Sequence record: OL780484.1
Length of the DNA stretch: 64,000 bases
Source of the DNA: Escherichia phage vB_EcoM-E33
Strand: one strand, 5' to 3'
Part shown: positions 15,915-55,289 of the stretch, one piece after another
Layout: the number at the start of each line of letters is the position of its first letter
How positions within the stretch are numbered: position 1 is the first letter of the stretch
The notes under the pieces: generated by a model
The model's database searches: none
What the model was told of the DNA's origin: nothing
The model's input: the letters and a program-made list of their open reading frames with translations, nothing else
Position numbers and translations under genes: made by a program

Positions 15915-17702
15915 TTAACCGACCTGTACGTTGCCACCAGATACTTTAGCTAATGAACCGCCATCCATATGCACAGTATTTGATGCGTTTAAATTAATGT
16001 TCGTCGCTGCAAAATTTAAATCTTGTTCGACATTTACATCCATATTTTGAGCATTGATTGTGGCCTTTTGTTTAACGCTTATATCTGCATTCTGGTTGAC
16101 ATTAACTGTTGTATCTTTTTCAACCGTAATATATGCTTCTTGTTCAACAGTTATATCAGCAGTACCCATAATAACTATTTTAACATTTCCTTTAACAAGC
16201 AGAGTTCCATTACCTTCTACAGTTTTGGTTTCATTCCCTCGAATATGAATGCTTTCAGACCCATCAGTTTGACGGCGCACGTTTGCCATATTATAATAGG
16301 TTTCATCGCCACCAACGTTGACTTTATTATTACCACCAACATAAGTATTTGAATCGCCTTGGGTCATATAATAACCATCGGCTACCGTCTTAGAAGTTTT
16401 ACGTCCATCAGGAGCAACTTCTTCATAACTACCGGTAGGATGGATTAAACGGTATCGTTCTTGCCCTGGGGTATTATCGAATTCTTGGATATGCCCGCCT
16501 TCAGTTTGCATGGTTTGGACATATGGATATTCGCCTTTATAACTAGAATCAGGTTCTTTAAAAAGAATCCTTGTGTCTTCTGGAGTCCACGGGTCGGCAG
16601 GGTCTGAATTTGTAGGGGCCACAAAGGTTTGAATCATTCTATACGAACGGCCATTAAATGACCTTTCTTTAGGGGCCATAATACCATATGATTCCATGTT
16701 ACCTGTGAGGATAATCATTGACACCCTTGATGCGCGACCTTTAGTTTGGTTAAACCATACTGAATTACGAGCTTCCTCAAATGCCTTTTTATAATCGCCT
16801 ATTAGCATTGCACTAAGCATTCCACGGAATTTAGCCAATCCACCTAATCCCATTTGGAAAGCCATGTTTTCAAGAGCCATTTGTCTTGAACGGTTTTCTT
16901 TATTGTAAACAGGACCTACAACACTATGCCGACCTATATCGTTTTGGACTTTTTTAAGGTCTTCTTGGAATAATTTAGAAGCCTCATCCATTGATATTGC
17001 ACCAGGGTTGCCTTTAACTTCTCGTCCTACCTGATTAGATAATATTTTGTTTATTCGATTCATATCTCTAATAGGTTGTGGTGTGATAAGGTGGCCTATA
17101 CCTATAGTAGGATAACCTTCGGTATCCCAATATACCTTCAGTCTAAGCCCTTCATCACGATGAAGCATGTTTTCTATTGTGAAATTAGGATTATCGTCTG
17201 GTTTGACTTGACTTAAATCCAACCCGTCAGGATTAATACCTACATCAGTGTTTGCATCTTGTATTACGTTAGAAGTGGCATCGTATCCAACTTCACCACC
17301 TCGGTTTAAAGCAGCAGCATCGTTACCTAAATAAAGCGGATATTGGCCTGTAGGGTCACTAAACCCTTCATTAGGATTAGCCTTCTGTCTTGAAGCGGAA
17401 CCGTATGTACCAAGGACAAGTCCGTTTAATTTCCACTTATCAAGAAAGTGACCATAAACTTGTGTACCGGGGACCATACCAGTCATAGCGGTTTGGATAC
17501 CTGAAACAGAGGCAGAAGATGTAGGCATTAATACCGACATCCATGGTAAATCTTCTGTACGAAGGCCTTTTACAGGGCCTTGTACTTTTTCATATGGATG
17601 CATACCCCATACGCGCACGCGTACTCGGCCTTGTTGGAGTGGGTCCATACGGTCTTCAACCACCCCTACGAACCAACTGACATTATCAGACATGTTAATC
17701 AT
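15915..17702 (-). CDS. 5: baseplate hub/cell-puncturing spike with lysozyme domain gp5
   Basis: 595 aa; N-terminal WFVGVVEDRMDP; lysozyme motif DEGL..WDTEGYPTIGIGH; C-terminal repetitive VxVxQ beta-helix segment. Confidence 0.92.
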   Translation of the reverse strand: MINMSDNVSWFVGVVEDRMDPLQQGRVRVRVWGMHPYEKVQGPVKGLRTEDLPWMSVLMPTSSASVSGIQTAMTGMVPGTQVYGHFLDKWKLNGLVLGTYGSASRQKANPNEGFSDPTGQYPLYLGNDAAALNRGGEVGYDATSNVIQDANTDVGINPDGLDLSQVKPDDNPNFTIENMLHRDEGLRLKVYWDTEGYPTIGIGHLITPQPIRDMNRINKILSNQVGREVKGNPGAISMDEASKLFQEDLKKVQNDIGRHSVVGPVYNKENRSRQMALENMAFQMGLGGLAKFRGMLSAMLIGDYKKAFEEARNSVWFNQTKGRASRVSMIILTGNMESYGIMAPKERSFNGRSYRMIQTFVAPTNSDPADPWTPEDTRILFKEPDSSYKGEYPYVQTMQTEGGHIQEFDNTPGQERYRLIHPTGSYEEVAPDGRKTSKTVADGYYMTQGDSNTYVGGNNKVNVGGDETYYNMANVRRQTDGSESIHIRGNETKTVEGNGTLLVKGNVKIVIMGTADITVEQEAYITVEKDTTVNVNQNADISVKQKATINAQNMDVNVEQDLNFAATNINLNASNTVHMDGGSLAKVSGGNVQVG

Positions 17703-18301
17703 AGCGCTTTTTCCATTTCTCTAATTAAAGCGGAAACAAAGGACTCGATGTCATTAGGGTCTATAATCTTTATTTCGCGCTTATATTCATTTTTACGAAT
17801 GGCGTCCTCGTAAATATCTACTGCAGCCAAAGGACCTTCATATTGAGGATAACGTTTTTCTGTATCACCTTTATCGTACCAAGTATAAGGATTTTCCGGA
17901 GTATTTACTAGATTCCAGAATTTCTCACCCTTTTCATTGACATGATAAAGGACTTGGTTTCCGCCTGCAGTAGCATAACGTTGAATAGCTGCTTGATACG
18001 CAGATTCTTGGCCTGTAATCCAGCCGTAATAAGGGTCATAGATATTGTTACACATTAAAAGGACCCAATATAATTGCACGTTACCATAAAGTTGATGGGC
18101 TAATTCTTCTGGACGAGGGGCCCCACTGATATAATATGTTTTAAGTGTATAATTTTTAGCCACTTTATCAAAATATTCTTTATAGTTTCTAAATATATCA
18201 GTCATCGGTACGCTCAGTACATCGGCATCAGTTAATGAGCCCGAATCCGGCTTGACTGTTTTTGATTCATAATTGATAGGATCGAAAAATGAGAAGAGCA
18301 T
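17699..18301 (-). CDS. 53: baseplate wedge protein gp53
   Basis: 200 aa; MLFSFFDPI..MTDIFRNYKEYF..YWVLLMCNNIYDPYYGWITGQE match T4 gp53. Confidence 0.9.
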   Translation of the reverse strand: MLFSFFDPINYESKTVKPDSGSLTDADVLSVPMTDIFRNYKEYFDKVAKNYTLKTYYISGAPRPEELAHQLYGNVQLYWVLLMCNNIYDPYYGWITGQESAYQAAIQRYATAGGNQVLYHVNEKGEKFWNLVNTPENPYTWYDKGDTEKRYPQYEGPLAAVDIYEDAIRKNEYKREIKIIDPNDIESFVSALIREMEKAL

Positions 18302-18346
18302 AGTGCCTCCGAGTATAAATAATATTAATATTTATAAGGAGGCACT
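18302..18346. promoter_or_regulatory. divergent late promoters (TATAAATA on both strands) inside a palindrome
   Basis: Plus TATAAATA at 18314-18321; minus TATAAATA (plus tatttata) at 18329-18336; flanked by inverted repeat agtgcctcc / ggaggcact that carries the Shine-Dalgarno (SD) sequence of each divergent gene. Confidence 0.6.
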
Positions 18347-18796
18347 ATGGCCTACTCAGGGAAATTTAAACCTACAAACTTACAAAAATATAAAGGTGAT
18401 TGGAAGAAAATCCAATATCGTTCCTCTTGGGAAGCATGGCTTATGCGTTGGCTTGACAACCATCCTAATGTCGTCCAGTGGAACTCGGAAGAGGTTGTGA
18501 TTCCATATTTTAGTAACGCTGATGGAAAGAAACGTCGGTATTTTATGGACTTCTGGGTGAAGTTCGACAATGGTCAACAATTCTTTTTCGAAGTCAAACC
18601 TTTTAAAGAGACCCATCCTCCAGCGGCGCCTGCTAAAATGACTACAGCTGCTAAAAAGAGATATATCAACGAACATTATACATGGAGTGTAAATAAAGAT
18701 AAATGGAAAGCTGCTAAAGCTACAGCAGATAAAATGGGAATTAATTTCAGATTGATTACCGAAAACTCACTGAAAAAATTAGGATGGAAAGGATGA
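18347..18796 (+). CDS. 4: head completion protein gp4
   Basis: 149 aa; [41 protein letters not shown] match T4 gp4. Confidence 0.88.
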
Positions 18797-32708: not shown

Positions 32709-32941
32709 GTATTGCAATTTATATTAAATCTGAGTCATGTGATTCTTACCTGTATTCCTATGATACCGGAACATCAGAAGAGAAAATTAAAGAAGACTTA
32801 GAAAGCGATATGGATATGTTCTGTCCTATTGGTGACTATATGCTTCAAGTGTCTGATAGTGAAAGTCCATCATCAGAAAATAGACTTCAAATTATTATGC
32901 AAGATATTTTTAAACAATCATGGGAACGAGACGATGAGTAA
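32705..32941 (+). CDS. small acidic hypothetical protein
   Basis: ATGA overlap with the upstream stop; 78 aa. Confidence 0.5.
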   Translation: MSIAIYIKSESCDSYLYSYDTGTSEEKIKEDLESDMDMFCPIGDYMLQVSDSESPSSENRLQIIMQDIFKQSWERDDE

Positions 32942-33383
32942 GAAAGCTAAGGAATTATCGGCAGGTATTTTGTTCATGACCGTTGATAAAGAACTAGTTA
33001 TGGGTCGTGTAACAGGCTCTCGTAATCCAGAGAATATGCGTCATAAATGGGACATTCCTAAGGGTCATGTCGAACCAGGCGAAGAGCCTATTCAAGCGGC
33101 AATGCGCGAAACCGAAGAAGAGATTGGATTCACAGCATACGATCCTGCGTTCCTGAAAGACCTAGGTGAGTTCAAATATTCAAGCAATAAGAATCTACAT
33201 CTGTTCTTATATACAGTGCCTGTGGAACACGAGCAGTTCAAGGATTGCAAATGTACGGCTTACCATACGTTCCCTGATGGTCGTACTATTCCTGAATTCG
33301 ATGCTTTTGCCTTGATTAAACGGCCACAATGGGAATATGTCATGGGCCCGTCGATGTTTAAGGTTTTGGATTCACTCTTTTGA
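32934..33383 (+). CDS. nudE: Nudix hydrolase (NudE-like)
   Basis: Nudix box GHVEPGEEPIQAAMRETEEEIGF; ATG 32934 overlaps the previous stop (ATGAGTAA); ORF-track start 32829 would be a 35-aa extension. Confidence 0.85.
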   Translation: MSKKAKELSAGILFMTVDKELVMGRVTGSRNPENMRHKWDIPKGHVEPGEEPIQAAMRETEEEIGFTAYDPAFLKDLGEFKYSSNKNLHLFLYTVPVEHEQFKDCKCTAYHTFPDGRTIPEFDAFALIKRPQWEYVMGPSMFKVLDSLF

Positions 33384-33413
33384 TATAAATACCTCCTATA
33401 CTCAGGAGGTATT
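33384..33413 (+). promoter_or_regulatory. late promoter TATAAATA plus SD-sequestering hairpin of gene e
   Basis: TATAAATA 33384-33391; atacctcct (33389-33397) pairs perfectly with aggaggtat (33404-33412), which contains the e gene SD. Confidence 0.7.
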
Positions 33414-33908
33414 ATGGATATTTTTGATATGTTACGTCAAGACGAAGGTCTTGATTTAAATCTTTATAAAGACACTGAAGGTTATTGGACTATTGGCATT
33501 GGCCAATTGATTACTAAGAACCCTTCTAAAGATGTTGCTCGTGCTGAACTTGATAAGCTTATGGGTCGAGTTTGTAATGGTCGTATTACTATGGCTGAAG
33601 CTGAACAACTCTTTAACCGATCGGTTGAAAATGCTCGTAGAGCTATTCTGCGTAATCCTAAATTGAAACCTGTTTATGATGTACTGGACGAAGTTCGTCG
33701 TTGTGCTTTAATTAACATGGTCTTCCAAATGGGTGAAGCAGGCGTAGCAGGGTTCACTAACTCTTTACGTATGCTCCAACAGAAACGTTGGAACGATGCG
33801 GCAGTTAACCTGGCTCAATCCCGTTGGTATAAACAAACTCCTAATCGTGCTAAGCGCGTGATTTCAACATTTAAAACAGGTACTTGGAAAGCATATGAAA
33901 ACTTATAA
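33414..33908 (+). CDS. e: endolysin (T4 lysozyme e)
   Basis: 164 aa; [30 protein letters not shown]...[31 protein letters not shown].. near-identical to T4 lysozyme; catalytic E11, D20, T26 present. Confidence 0.95.
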
Positions 33909-34293
33909 TGAATTTATCGCAGAGAATGTAATTCCTGCATCTAAAGAACTTTTGGCGATGTTTGAATCTGAAGAGTTCACTGAAGAACTGAATGAGAACC
34001 TGACCCAGGCCACTCCTCAGGTTATTCGCGTTCGTAATGCCCTTCAGACAGGCATGCAGGCTCGTGTATCTAAGACTATGAAGCTGGCATTCACCACTTC
34101 TAAAAATGAAGACTATGGTGATGGTATTGCAATGAACACTGGGCAGTATTATGTTGAGTGGAATGGTGAAACCGGTACTGCTAAGATTCGCCAAACGAGA
34201 GCAGCGGGTGGCAAAATGTTGGACCTTAAACTGAACGTTAAAGAGAAAGACGTCGCGGCTTTGTTCAAGAATTGGATGAAGACTTACAAATAA
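33895..34293 (+). CDS. internal-protein-like protein with capsid-targeting leader
   Basis: N-terminus [11 protein letters not shown] (identical EFIAE site to the T4 leader); start overlaps the e stop; 132 aa. Confidence 0.7.
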
Positions 34294-34322
34294 GTTTACA
34301 TCTCCTGTAGTCATGATACTAT
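34294..34322 (+). promoter_or_regulatory. early promoter inside stem-loop
   Basis: GTTTAC 34294-34299, 17 nt, TACTAT 34317-34322; arms atctcctgtag / ctacaggagat, the latter containing the denV SD. Confidence 0.6.
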
Positions 34323-34349
34323 AGACCTATCAACTACAGGAGATTAAAA

Positions 34350-34766
34350 ATGACTCGTATCAACCTTACCTTAGTATCTGAATTGGCTGACCAACACTTA
34401 ATGGCTGAATATCGTGAATTACCACGTGTTTTCGGTGCAGTTCGTAAGCATGTTGCTAATGGTAAACGTGTCCGTGATTTCAAAATCAGTCCTACTTTTA
34501 TCCTTGGCACAGGCCATGTTACATTCTTTTACGATAAGCTTGAATTTTTACGTAAGCGACAAATTGAGCTTATAGCCGAATGTTTAAAACGTGGTTTTAA
34601 TATCAAGGATACTACTGTCCAGGACATTAGTGACATTCCTCAGGAATTCCGTGGTGACTATACTCCACACGAAGCTTCTATTGCTATATCTCAGGCCCGT
34701 TTGGACGAAAAAATTGCACAACGCTCTACCTGGTACAAACATTACGGCAAGGCTATTTACGCTTAA
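34350..34766 (+). CDS. denV: endonuclease V (pyrimidine dimer DNA glycosylase)
   Basis: 138 aa; [34 protein letters not shown]... essentially colinear with T4 DenV as recalled. Confidence 0.93.
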
Positions 34767-34808: not shown

Positions 34809-35168
34809 ATGAAAACTTACCAACAATTTATTACTGAATCTACTCAGCGCATTAACGAAGCTATGTCTCCTGAACAATTGGCTAAGGCCAAAGAAGGGCT
34901 GAACCCATCTGAAGTTTTTAAAGTTACAGGTAAAGACTTTGCTTCCATGGCCACTAACCAGAGCTTGGCTAAAGAACTTAAATCTAAATCTAACTTCATT
35001 CATGCTACATGGAATGGTGATTCTCTTACTTCAATAAGTGTGTACAATAAAAAAGGTCTCCTTAAGAGTTCTTATGGCGCGGATGCCATCCGTGTTTCTA
35101 AATCAGATTGGCATAAAAACACTACTAAAGCAGAAAAACCTCATAACCCGGCACTAGACCATCTTTAA
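34809..35168 (+). CDS. internal-protein-like protein with capsid-targeting leader
   Basis: N-terminus MKTYQQFITEST; 119 aa. Confidence 0.7.
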   Translation: MKTYQQFITESTQRINEAMSPEQLAKAKEGLNPSEVFKVTGKDFASMATNQSLAKELKSKSNFIHATWNGDSLTSISVYNKKGLLKSSYGADAIRVSKSDWHKNTTKAEKPHNPALDHL

Positions 35169-35176
35169 GGCTTAAT

Positions 35177-35434
35177 ATGAAAACTTACCAAGAATTTATT
35201 ACAGAATCCACTTTAGTTTCTAAACGTTGGAATATGATTGTAAACGTTAAACCTTCCGGCACTGAAGTTTCTATGGCCGACCCTAATGATGACGAACTTG
35301 AGCACGCTTTTAGCTCTAAAGAAACTGACGAGAAAGTGGTTAAGCAACTGGTTGCTGATGCAGATCAACTTCGTAAAGTAGCAGATGTTGTTAAGCTGTT
35401 TACTAAGAAAGGTTTTAAACACGAAGAACGTTAA
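35177..35434 (+). CDS. internal-protein-like protein with capsid-targeting leader
   Basis: N-terminus MKTYQEFITEST; 85 aa. Confidence 0.7.
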   Translation: MKTYQEFITESTLVSKRWNMIVNVKPSGTEVSMADPNDDELEHAFSSKETDEKVVKQLVADADQLRKVADVVKLFTKKGFKHEER

Positions 35435-37104: not shown

Positions 37105-37133
37105 GTTTACATCTCCTGTAGACGTGGTACTAT
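37105..37133 (+). promoter_or_regulatory. early promoter inside stem-loop
   Basis: GTTTAC 37105-37110, 17 nt, TACTAT 37128-37133; same arms atctcctgtag / ctacaggagat as the 34294 cassette. Confidence 0.6.
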
Positions 37134-37161
37134 AGACCTATCAACTACAGGAGATTACAAA

Positions 37162-37620
37162 ATGTCAGAAATTAATTCAGAAGTATTCATCCGCCGCAAT
37201 AAATTACGTCGTCAGTTCGAAACCGAATTCCGTGAACTGAATACGTCCATCAAAAAAGCCGCCATCAAGAGCGGAGTCCCAGCCTTCTTTATTAAGTACT
37301 CTAATCACTTGTTGGACCGTGCTATCCAACGTGAAATCGACGAAAAATACGTTTTTGCTTTATTCAAGCAACTCCATAACCATGTTAAAGAAATTCATGA
37401 ATTTTTAATCCAGGAACCTCTACCTGATGTAGAATCCGAAATTGTCCCTGGTAAAGTGTATCGTCCATTGCGTCTCGAAATTACCGATAAAACCTTATGG
37501 CTAGGTATGACAGTAGACCGTAAACATCCTGATAAAGGATATTCCCTTAAATGTCGTATGGCATTTGTTAACTCTAAACGTTTAGAAGGTAAAACCAGCA
37601 CGAAAGTAATCTATCTTTAA
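37162..37620 (+). CDS. hypothetical protein
   Basis: SD aggag inside the hairpin 3' arm, then ATG; 152 aa. Confidence 0.55.
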   Translation: MSEINSEVFIRRNKLRRQFETEFRELNTSIKKAAIKSGVPAFFIKYSNHLLDRAIQREIDEKYVFALFKQLHNHVKEIHEFLIQEPLPDVESEIVPGKVYRPLRLEITDKTLWLGMTVDRKHPDKGYSLKCRMAFVNSKRLEGKTSTKVIYL

Positions 37621-41011: not shown

Positions 41012-41040
41012 GTTTACATCCTCTAGGAACATGATACTAT
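41012..41040 (+). promoter_or_regulatory. early promoter cassette
   Basis: GTTTAC 41012-41017, 17 nt, TACTAT 41035-41040, then agacctatcaa. Confidence 0.6.
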
Positions 41041-41068
41041 AGACCTATCAACTAATGAGGAGAACAGT

Positions 41069-41305
41069 ATGAAACTTACAAGTACTACGGTTTCATTAGA
41101 ATATGAAATCAACGGTCGTATCCTTGAGATTAAGATATTCGACGACCGAAGTATCTTCGCTGATTATCGAGGATACAGAATTCGTCTAGAAAAGGACGAG
41201 CTCAAGGAACCGTGGCTCCTTAAAGACACATTAAAGGGATGTGGATGTAAACTGAATACAGCCCAGGCCCAGGAATTGATTTCTAACATTAACAAATATT
41301 GGTGA
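41069..41305 (+). CDS. hypothetical protein
   Basis: SD gaggag then ATG; 78 aa. Confidence 0.5.
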   Translation: MKLTSTTVSLEYEINGRILEIKIFDDRSIFADYRGYRIRLEKDELKEPWLLKDTLKGCGCKLNTAQAQELISNINKYW

Positions 41306-46822: not shown

Positions 46823-46851
46823 GTTTACATCTCCAGTAGAAATGATACTAT
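46823..46851 (+). promoter_or_regulatory. early promoter inside stem-loop
   Basis: GTTTAC 46823-46828, 17 nt, TACTAT 46846-46851; arms ctccagtag / ctactggag, the latter containing the SD. Confidence 0.6.
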
Positions 46852-46877
46852 AGACCTATCAACTACTGGAGGTTAAC

Positions 46878-47402
46878 ATGAACGCTAAAGATATTTTTTC
46901 ACTCATCAATTATAACAATGGTAATTTCAAATCCGAAAAACAAAGCAAGTTCTTTAACGACGTTGCTTGTGGTAATGAGATTACTGTATCTGGAGGAGAG
47001 ATTTACAAAAGCCGTTGGAACTGGATTGTTGTCATCGATTCAGTTGGTATTGTAGAGCTCTATAAAAACACTAACAAAAAACGTACTCTTCACTGGAGTC
47101 GTGAAACCAATCAAGCTTATCAAGCTGAACGTAACAAACGTTTAATGCCTACCGAATCTGACCTGGCAAACGTTAAATCTGATATCGCTTATTTCGATAA
47201 TCTGATTGCTGAACAACAAGCTGTTATTGATAAGTTTGACGAAATCAAAGCTTGTAAAGAGATTCCTGAATTCATGCGGGAATCAGTAAACGAACAGTAC
47301 GCCCTCACTTCAGGTCGTATCGAGCAGTACAAATCACAACGAGCTGAACGCCAAGCTCTGCTTCAGAAATTTGAAGAGCGTTTAAAGACGGTTCTCGCAT
47401 AA
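46878..47402 (+). CDS. hypothetical protein
   Basis: 174 aa. Confidence 0.5.
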   Translation: MNAKDIFSLINYNNGNFKSEKQSKFFNDVACGNEITVSGGEIYKSRWNWIVVIDSVGIVELYKNTNKKRTLHWSRETNQAYQAERNKRLMPTESDLANVKSDIAYFDNLIAEQQAVIDKFDEIKACKEIPEFMRESVNEQYALTSGRIEQYKSQRAERQALLQKFEERLKTVLA

Positions 47403-51855: not shown

Positions 51856-52032
51856 ATGAAAACTGAACTGATTTATACTGAAAAGTTAAATGGCGGTAAA
51901 GTCTGGAAACTTCTTATTAAAGGAAGTCCTACTGATCAGTTTATGGCCACTTGTGTAGGGTTATACACCCGTCCTACCAAAAAGATGATTCGTCAATTTA
52001 AACGGTTGCATCGCTCATTTTATAATGTTTAA
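51856..52032 (+). CDS. small basic hypothetical protein
   Basis: ATG 51856 (MKTELIY...); ORF-track start 51832. Confidence 0.45.
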   Translation: MKTELIYTEKLNGGKVWKLLIKGSPTDQFMATCVGLYTRPTKKMIRQFKRLHRSFYNV

Positions 52033-52070
52033 TAAATACCTATATCTAATTATTATTAAAGGTATAGGTC

Positions 52071-53144
52071 ATGCAAGATTTCGGACATTGGGCGGTATTT
52101 GAAGAAACCGATATTAAAAACCATATTGGATTTGTATACGTAATCACTTTTGAAGATGGCAAAAAATATGTGGGTGCTAAAAAGATTTGGAAACGAATTA
52201 AAGCTGCACCTTGCACATTTAAACGCGGCCCTAAAAAAGGATTTGAAGAATCTGATTGGAAAACCTATACCTCATCATCTAATGAACTAAACGCAATGAT
52301 AGAAAAGGGTATAAGTCCTAAAGAGTACCTTATTGTAGGATGGTATCCTACTTGGGGTAAAACTCTTATGGCAGAAATGGAAATGCAATTAGCCAATGAT
52401 GTTTTACGAGACCCTATGTGGCTTAACAAGCAAATTGGCGGACATTTCAACCCTAACTGCTTTGACGATTTAACCGAAGATGATATTGCAAGATGGATGG
52501 AATTTGATAAAGGGAACGAACATGTTTCCTGGCCTATGATGTACAAAATCGGTCAGAAAACCAAATATGTTAAACCTGACGAAGTTGGCAAGTATATTAA
52601 ATCTGGGTGGCAATTTGGTCGTTCTAAAACAGAAAAACATTCTGTTACCTATAATTGCTCTAAATTTACTATATGGGACTATCAAGAAAATAAAGCAGTG
52701 GAAGTTCTAAATCAAAATGAGTTTGCTCGTAATAATGATTTAAGTAGCAACCATCTAACTAGACTACTTCAAGGAACTCTCGACCTTATTAAAGATCGCT
52801 GGGGACTTCCACCAGATATTGCTCGTCAGCGTTATAAATTTCAGGACGTTTCTTCAGGAACAAAATTTTTATCTAATTCTGAGTTAGAAGAATTTTACGG
52901 TATGACTCGCGGTCAGGCTAACAAAGCCGTTAAAGATGGAAGAGCCGTTAAATTGGTAGTCGAAAGCAAAGAAGACCACATTAAAAAACTTGGCTCTATC
53001 GAATTGGTAAAAACCGAAAAGACAAAAGTTACGTCTCAAGTAATGCTTAACAGTTTTAAAGATATAGTTAATCCTATGACCACTGCCGAAAAATCAGAAA
53101 TGATTGAATGGTTGGAAAGTTATATAACTTATTTGAAATCTTAA
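52071..53144 (+). CDS. GIY-YIG homing endonuclease (Seg-like)
   Basis: N-terminal GFVYVITFEDGKKYVGAKK GIY-YIG motif; 357 aa with long C-terminal putative DNA-binding region. Confidence 0.75.
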   Translation: MQDFGHWAVFEETDIKNHIGFVYVITFEDGKKYVGAKKIWKRIKAAPCTFKRGPKKGFEESDWKTYTSSSNELNAMIEKGISPKEYLIVGWYPTWGKTLMAEMEMQLANDVLRDPMWLNKQIGGHFNPNCFDDLTEDDIARWMEFDKGNEHVSWPMMYKIGQKTKYVKPDEVGKYIKSGWQFGRSKTEKHSVTYNCSKFTIWDYQENKAVEVLNQNEFARNNDLSSNHLTRLLQGTLDLIKDRWGLPPDIARQRYKFQDVSSGTKFLSNSELEEFYGMTRGQANKAVKDGRAVKLVVESKEDHIKKLGSIELVKTEKTKVTSQVMLNSFKDIVNPMTTAEKSEMIEWLESYITYLKS

Positions 53145-54093: not shown

Positions 54094-54122
54094 ATTTACT
54101 TCCTCTCCTCACGTGTTATAGT
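54094..54122 (+). promoter_or_regulatory. early promoter variant inside stem-loop
   Basis: -35 ATTTAC 54094-54099, -10 TATAGT 54117-54122; arms cctcacgtgtt / aacacatgagg, the latter overlapping SD gaggag. Confidence 0.5.
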
Positions 54123-54151
54123 CTATCCTATCAACACATGAGGAGAACATT

Positions 54152-54334
54152 ATGACTATCCAAGATAAAGAAATTAAAGCCGACCAGTATTATTTGGTAA
54201 ATGGCTACCCTGTTCAAGTAACAAAGGTAACAAATCTCGATGTATGGTATCAACCTTTGACTCACCCTGATGCTCCATTGATGGTGTGCGACCGTTCTTT
54301 ATTTTGTTCAGTAGCTAAGGAAATTAAATCATGA
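54152..54334 (+). CDS. hypothetical protein
   Basis: 60 aa. Confidence 0.45.
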   Translation: MTIQDKEIKADQYYLVNGYPVQVTKVTNLDVWYQPLTHPDAPLMVCDRSLFCSVAKEIKS

Positions 54335-55221: not shown

Positions 55222-55250
55222 TTTACAAACTCTTGGGACCAGAGTATAAT
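55221..55250 (+). promoter_or_regulatory. early promoter inside stem-loop
   Basis: GTTTAC 55221-55226 (overlaps the upstream stop), 18 nt, TATAAT 55245-55250; gggacca / tggtcc repeat flanks the -10. Confidence 0.6.
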
Positions 55251-55289
55251 GGTCCTACGGATTATAACTTTAAAACTGAGGAAATTATT

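Follow-up and report, generated by a model that had tools for sequence, protein, structure and literature searches.

The leader of the lysozyme gene e in Escherichia phage vB_EcoM-E33 (E33 phage) is very probably the translational timing device of T4 gene e, here in a WG01-like Dhakavirus. In the window that we analyzed, the whole 64,000-nucleotide stretch from sequence record OL780484.1, a gp55-type late promoter runs into a hairpin whose 3′ arm contains the SD of e (Table 1). This assignment draws on the anatomy of the leader, its fold and energetics, its orthology and synteny with T4, the lack of an intervening terminator-like site upstream and its conservation in the Tevenvirinae. The element itself is already known. 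The T4 mechanism was published in 1986 and its conservation in related phages was reported in 2010, and it is therefore not novel; a first-pass annotation of the window had correctly recognized a published and already compared element.

The region around e (33200-33950 of the window) shares 99.9% identity with Escherichia phage WG01 (Dhakavirus, Tevenvirinae). The first-pass annotation had taken the gene for lysozyme e, and this identification is borne out: the product is 74% identical to T4 lysozyme over all 164 aa, matches Pfam Phage_lysozyme with the catalytic residues E11, D20 and T26 all there, and is encoded directly after nudE as in T4. The T4 gene order continues beyond this pair, from nudE and e through internal protein genes to denV. 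Upstream of e, genes on the + strand are densely packed from ~25.9 kb, with two strong promoters of the sigma70 type (26191 and 26648) and a site resembling a MotA box (28157). A terminator scan found no terminator-like site between 31000 and 33413, its single weak match lying further upstream at 28901. The tight gene packing, the early-type promoters and the lack of an intervening terminator-like site lead us to expect that early and middle transcripts read through into e. At the e promoter site itself, no −35/−10 pair was found on the + strand. A sigma70-like match on the minus strand (33440-33411, TTGACG-18-CATAAT, 10/12), which would run antisense from the e start into the leader, is probably a chance occurrence because such matches are as common in the window as in shuffles (27 versus 26).

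Around the e start, the + strand reads ttttga, TATAAATAcctcct, atactc, aggaggtatt and ATG, in that order, followed by gat. The nudE stop codon (TGA, 33381-33383) adjoins the late promoter directly, and at the other end of the leader AGGAGG ends 4 nt before the e start codon (ATG, 33414-33416). The TATAAATA that the first-pass annotation had placed at 33384-33391 is present exactly there, and AGGAGG (33404-33409) lies inside the 3′ arm, which had indeed been described as the e SD. Two details of that description need adjustment. The stem had been given as a perfect 9-bp pairing, and its arms ATACCTCCT (33389-33397) and AGGAGGTAT (33404-33412) are in place, but an extra A-T pair (33388/33413) makes it a perfect stem of 10 bp (33388-33397 with 33404-33413). 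Likewise, the promoter does overlap the 5′ arm, but by 4 nt and not 3.

Table 1. Features of the nudE–e junction and the e leader, in window coordinates
Feature	Coordinates	Strand	Basis
nudE (e.1), Nudix hydrolase gene	32934..33383	+	Pfam NUDIX E = 7.6e-15; WG01 annotation = nudix hydrolase; T4 nudE position
gp55-type late promoter, exact TATAAATA (−13 to −6)	33384..33391	+	sequence; position convention of PMC1524935
Hairpin 5′ arm AATACCTCCT, containing anti-SD CCTCC at −5 to −1 (promoter-to-start interval)	33388..33397	+	sequence, fold, conservation
Predicted late transcription start (+1 = 33397; A at 33398 or 33400 possible)	33397..33400	+	−13 to −6 rule
Hairpin loop ATACTC, 6 nt	33398..33403	+	sequence, fold
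Hairpin 3′ arm AGGAGGTATT, SD AGGAGG (33404-33409) plus 4-nt spacer	33404..33413	+	sequence, fold
Gene e, soluble T4-type lysozyme (endolysin), 164 aa	33414..33908	+	identity to T4 e, Pfam Phage_lysozyme, ORF

The minimum free energy structure returned by ViennaRNA is exactly this 10-bp hairpin, at −14.1 kcal/mol. Its energy, taken alone, is only modestly unusual, since in a 61-nt context (z = −2.1) 6 of 200 shuffles fold equally well. In the read-through RNA, the SD bases of e have a probability of being unpaired of at most 0.08. We used a partition function to compute the free energy required to open the stretch from SD to AUG (33404-33416), which we call the opening cost. For RNAs that begin 60-120 nt upstream or at the first base of the promoter this cost is 11.5-14.8 kcal/mol, and for RNAs that begin at 33397-33400 it is 4.0-4.7 kcal/mol; the median over the 108 gene starts of the window is 5.1 kcal/mol, and read-through e ranks 9th of the 108. 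By this model the late form of the leader is ordinary and the read-through form strongly closed. The late RNA is predicted to retain a weak alternative pairing of the SD (opening cost ~4-5 kcal/mol).

None of the pieces of this element is remarkable by itself. The window has 6 sites of TATAAATA versus 7.8 expected, so that this motif is not enriched. Perfect hairpins with a stem of 9 bp or more and a loop of 3-12 nt, the e hairpin among them, are rare but number 7 in the 64 kb versus 2.5 ± 1.4 in dinucleotide shuffles. Rfam covariance models gave no match at E ≤ 1 on either strand of 33200-33600. What lifts the element above chance is that promoter, anti-SD, SD and AUG are exactly positioned relative to each other ahead of an e orthologue, and that this arrangement is conserved. 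A CCTCC behind the promoter is no general trait of late promoters, being absent after all five of the other TATAAATA sites in the window.

In T4 late promoters TATAAATA spans −13 to −6 (Nolan et al. 2006, PMC1524935), and by this rule late transcription of e would start at about 33397, where the 5′ arm ends. Late RNA would thus keep 0-1 nt of this arm and carry a 17-nt leader without the anti-SD; it is this loss of the 5′ arm that lowers the computed opening cost by 7-10 kcal/mol. We envision a scenario in which, in the early and middle periods, RNA polymerase from promoters several kb upstream transcribes the packed genes through nudE into e. On this read-through RNA, AAUACCUCCU would pair with AGGAGGUAUU and bury the SD and the spacer up to the AUG, so that 30S subunits would seldom bind and little lysozyme would be made early. 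After the onset of replication, RNA polymerase acting with gp55, gp33 and gp45 would use TATAAATA and start at about 33397. The anti-SD, lying between the −10-type element and +1, would remain untranscribed in the late RNA, and the 17-nt late leader, incapable of forming the hairpin, would allow e to be translated. Where late transcription really begins in E33 phage, whether and how much RNA reads through, and how strongly translation is affected are points that we infer. Some leakage is conceivable: with only 4 nt between the nudE stop and the stem, a ribosome terminating at nudE may partly open the hairpin by melting its outer pairs and thereby allow some coupled initiation of e on early RNA. 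The first-pass annotation had proposed the T4-style logic, in which early read-through RNA is untranslatable and RNA that starts late, inside the stem, is translatable; the geometry and the modelled opening costs fit this logic, for which the T4 precedent is documented (PMC3014915).

According to the review of Uzan and Miller (2010, PMC3014915), which cites McPheeters et al. 1986 (NAR 14:5813), the longer early transcripts of T4 e form an inhibitory structure that cuts lysozyme synthesis ~100-fold, and the RNAs made at its two late promoters, both without the 5′ portion of this structure, are well translated. The same review predicts similar e leaders, with the late promoter in the region of the 5′ strand, in close T4-type relatives (Figure 5A), and reports no such e structure in Aeh1, 44RR, 25, 31 and FelixO1; JS98 is not named in its text, and in the literature searched we found nothing specific on the regulation of e in JS98 or Dhakavirus. 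A comparison with the T4 e upstream region (TTTTATAAATACCTTCTATAAATACTTAGGAGGTATTATG), which the first-pass annotation had suggested, is favorable to its reading. The two leaders are near-identical: they share TATAAATACC, AGGAGGTATTATG and AGGAGGTATT-ATG, and their 10-nt 5′ arms are equal but for one base. In both phages the gene is orthologous (74%), nudE lies upstream and late transcription is predicted to begin where the 5′ arm ends. The differing base is a T in the 5′ arm of T4 (CCTTCT), which gives its stem a G·U pair, whereas E33 phage has a C (CCTCCT), a G-C pair and a perfect stem. Further, T4 has two late promoters, the second TATAAATA lying in the loop, whereas E33 phage has one, at 33384, and none in the loop; the loop is 8-10 nt long in T4 and 6 nt in E33 phage, a difference of 4 nt in the direct comparison of the leaders; and the nudE stop of T4 is a TAA with 3 nt before the promoter, in contrast to the TGA that adjoins it here.

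Related arrangements are known from other genes. A late promoter within a hairpin that sequesters the ribosome-binding site has been described for I-TevI, I-TevII, I-TevIII, segB and mobE, and sequestration of the ribosome-binding site is given for soc, e, 39, 25 and 26 (Edgell et al. 2010, PMC2988022). The leaders of soc, 49, I-TevI/II/III, segB and Aeh1 mobE (PMC2988022, PMC3014915) resemble that of e in that the gene belongs to an early or middle unit, the long RNA is closed and a proximal late promoter yields an open RNA. However, the genes and sequences are unrelated and the stems mostly longer, and these systems are analogues and not homologues of the e leader. PeSL cassettes (Arbiol 2010, PMC2839356; Comeau 2014, PMC4122927) are likewise short composites of a promoter, a stem-loop, an SD and a start codon. 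In these cassettes, however, the promoter is an early one of the sigma70 type and a terminator stem-loop lies upstream of it, whereas the e element has a gp55-type late promoter inside the SD-containing stem. With TATAAATA inside the stem and no −35/−10 pair on the + strand, we rejected membership of the e element among PeSLs as defined in PMC4122927.

An e homologue is present in some 1,900 phage records. To place the leader in a wider context, we gathered e leaders from IMG/VR contigs and GenBank phages, which gave 19 distinct leaders from at least nine genera of Tevenvirinae (Tequatro-, Mosig-, Dhaka-, Karam-, Kanagawa-, Moon-, Jiaoda- and Marfavirus and other T4-like phages). All 19 have NATAAATA followed directly by an anti-SD, C(C)YYCCT, and then a hairpin closed by the SD in its 3′ arm. 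Hairpin energies range from −9.9 to −16.3 kcal/mol, and opening the stretch from SD to AUG costs 5-12 kcal/mol more in the read-through RNA than in the RNA from the predicted +1. By the same position rule, every Tevenvirinae e leader sampled has its anti-SD in what should be the untranscribed −5 to −1 interval of the late promoter. The arrangement is absent from the more distant e homologues of Vequintavirinae, Stephanstirmvirinae and the Aeromonas phages AS-gz and AsFcp_1, in line with its published absence from Aeh1, 44RR, 25, 31 and FelixO1. ATAAATAC (including ATAAATA) and the SD/ATG block are invariant in 16 aligned leaders, and promoter position −13 is T, A or G, a variation also reported for T4-like late promoters (PMC1524935). 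The regions upstream of the promoter are unrelated between genera, and the loops vary in sequence and length. The stem is extended in one of two ways: outward into the promoter (AAUA:UAUU) in the T4, Dhakavirus and Mosigvirus types, or inward to the loop (UAUC:GAUA and variants) in the CC31, PEi20, Moon, JD18, CBH8 and PM2 types.

Because a plain MAFFT alignment shifted the 5′ arm of one leader type by a column against that of the other, pairs were counted in an N-padded structural alignment made by hand, and these counts lean towards the structure. In this manual alignment the anti-SD:SD core helix is 98.8% paired, with one compensatory change from U-A to C-G and several wobble changes. Overall pairing in the structure-fitted alignment is 80% versus 35-53% in slid controls, and the covariation score exceeds those of all 500 shuffles, although the covariation is modest, given that the structure guided the alignment and that the function of the SD itself limits changes in its arm. 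A second promoter in the loop was seen, among the leaders sampled, only in those of the Tequatrovirus type. From this distribution the double promoter of T4 looks like a peculiarity of Tequatrovirus and a single late promoter appears to be the ancestral state. In the Mosigvirus mar005P1 (locus L089, 240-300), a second copy of CCTCCTATAA, located right ahead of the promoter where nudE ends, could be a spare anti-SD able to pair with the SD in read-through RNA.

The hairpin might instead act mainly on the fate of the RNA, as a stabilizer of the nudE 3′ end or as a shield of the SD GGAG against RegB, with translational silencing a secondary effect. It does start 4 nt past the nudE stop, and the e SD contains the GGAG at which RegB cuts the SDs of early mRNAs (PMC2988021, PMC3014915). 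We nevertheless consider this account improbable. A stabilizer need not pair with the SD, yet the anti-SD:SD core is conserved in every lineage; the account leaves unexplained why the promoter is always placed such that the 5′ arm is stripped from the late RNA; and the T4 structure, according to PMC3014915, reduces ribosome binding and translation. Effects on RNA stability or RegB shielding are possible as an addition to translational control. It is also conceivable that the sequence was simply inherited and has no current regulatory role, or that it is a chance palindrome. The lack of enrichment of TATAAATA, the moderately unusual energy of the single hairpin and the sharing of the sequence by descent among close relatives would all be compatible with this. 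Between genera, however, flanks and loops have fully diverged and the pairing of promoter, anti-SD and SD has been kept, with two different routes to a longer stem, and chance would yield only ~2.5 perfect hairpins with stems of 9 bp or more in 64 kb; we give such an inert origin very little credence.

Still less credible to us is the idea that early transcription stops behind nudE because the hairpin works as an intrinsic terminator or attenuator, so that e is silent early for want of transcription. A stable 10-bp stem right after a stop codon invites this reading, as does a T-rich stretch (ATATTTTT) 8 nt beyond the stem. No U tract adjoins the stem, however, which is followed by AUGGAUAUUUUU, and the terminator scan makes no call here. 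There is also no need to build a terminator from the SD of the next gene, and PMC3014915 describes T4 e as transcribed early into an RNA that is untranslated. Altogether, translational control by a hairpin that late transcripts escape is the reading that we favor.

For discovery this finding matters little: it fits a textbook switch of endolysin timing that seems intact in a Dhakavirus. The gain is one of annotation, namely a putative late promoter, a predicted 17-nt late leader and e as a probable late-translated gene within an early transcription unit, with small comparative refinements: the constant position of the anti-SD at −5 to −1, a stem length held by extensions that differ per genus, and the double promoter of Tequatrovirus. 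The more interesting lead is the nesting of anti-SDs in early promoters elsewhere in the window. The first-pass annotation had extended the logic of e to the other promoter-embedded hairpins of the window, and computationally this extension stands for gp4, gp53, a segE-like gene and three early-promoter cassettes; it fails for others, for example 26196-26227, that have no SD. The generalization is thus only partly justified, because some promoter hairpins (26196-26227, 26648 and 55222) involve no SD. A wider reading is possible but doubtful: the e leader would be one case of a genome-wide rule in this group of phages by which an anti-SD inside the promoter lets a gene be translated only from its own promoter and insulates it from read-through, the anti-SD lying at −5 to −1 in late promoters and in the −35/−10 spacer in sigma70 promoters, with the early cassette serving also as an apparent recombination site.

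One of these other leaders lies between the genes for gp53 and gp4, where positions 18303-18346 form a near-perfect palindrome (ATAGTGCCTCC-GAG-TATAAATA-ATATTAA-TATTTATA-AGGAGGCACTAT) flanked by genes at 17699-18301 (−) and 18347-18796 (+). It holds divergent late promoters, with TATAAATA on the + strand at 18314 and on the − strand at 18329, and is predicted to sequester the SDs of both genes, one gp4-like (with a TnsA-like N domain) and the other gp53 (Pfam Phage_gp53). Among the 108 gene starts, none is costlier to open than these two (26.5 and 23.1 kcal/mol), and their cost drops to ~6 from the predicted +1. The interval between T4 genes 4 and 53 contains a weaker version of the same palindrome. 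At 52031-52073, CCTATA comes immediately after AATAAATA and pairs with a TATAGG close ahead of the ATG of a + strand gene (52071-53144) for a SegE-like GIY-YIG homing endonuclease. The opening cost at this start is 11.9 kcal/mol in read-through RNA versus 3.3 from +1, and the leader matches the published control of segB, I-TevI and mobE by a late promoter in a hairpin.

The early-promoter cassette has the form GTTTACA-TCTCCTGTAG-n6-TACTAT-AGACCTATCAAC-TACAGGAGA-n6-ATG on the + strand, and there are at least five copies in the window (34295-34352, 37106-37164, 41013-41080, 46824-46880 and 54095-54154, all +). Its anti-SD, located in the −35/−10 spacer of a sigma70-type promoter, is predicted to pair with the SD of the adjacent downstream gene (denV and others). 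The predicted RNAs are closed on read-through (10.5-18.9 kcal/mol) and open when promoter-proximal (2.8-4.5 kcal/mol), costs taken from gene starts with a verified ATG and leaving out those at 24730, 41055, 22811 and 25923. The cassette thus resembles the logic of e transposed to early promoters, and differs from the published PeSLs, whose stem-loop lies upstream of the promoter; as a systematic device, an anti-SD within early promoters was not found in the literature searched. Three further + strand elements (26196-26227, 26648-26690 and 55222-55262) are early promoters of the sigma70 type with the −10 in a hairpin loop, for example ATGGGCTCAT-gattaagatatt-ATGAGCCCAT. The 5′ arm of these hairpins falls within the spacer and the 3′ arm coincides with the start site, but neither contains an SD; not every promoter-embedded hairpin in the window is an SD trap.

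Several small + strand ORFs (33895-34293, 24730 onward, 34809-35168 and 35177-35434) begin with MKTY(N/Q)EFI(A/T)E, an N-terminal motif that we take to be the leader that targets internal proteins of T4 to the capsid. An exact TATAAATA (24704), with no hairpin, accompanies the ORF at ~24730. Compared with WG01 (locus L097, 2596-3298), the window is without a 703-bp segment, at ~34290-34310, that contains ORF117 (internal head protein). In WG01 the cassette start AAGTTTACATCTCCT stands on both sides of this segment, and at the junction in the window it occurs once. From these sequences, recombination between promoter cassettes seems to have deleted or inserted the segment, which resembles the modular shuffling proposed to be mediated by PeSLs.
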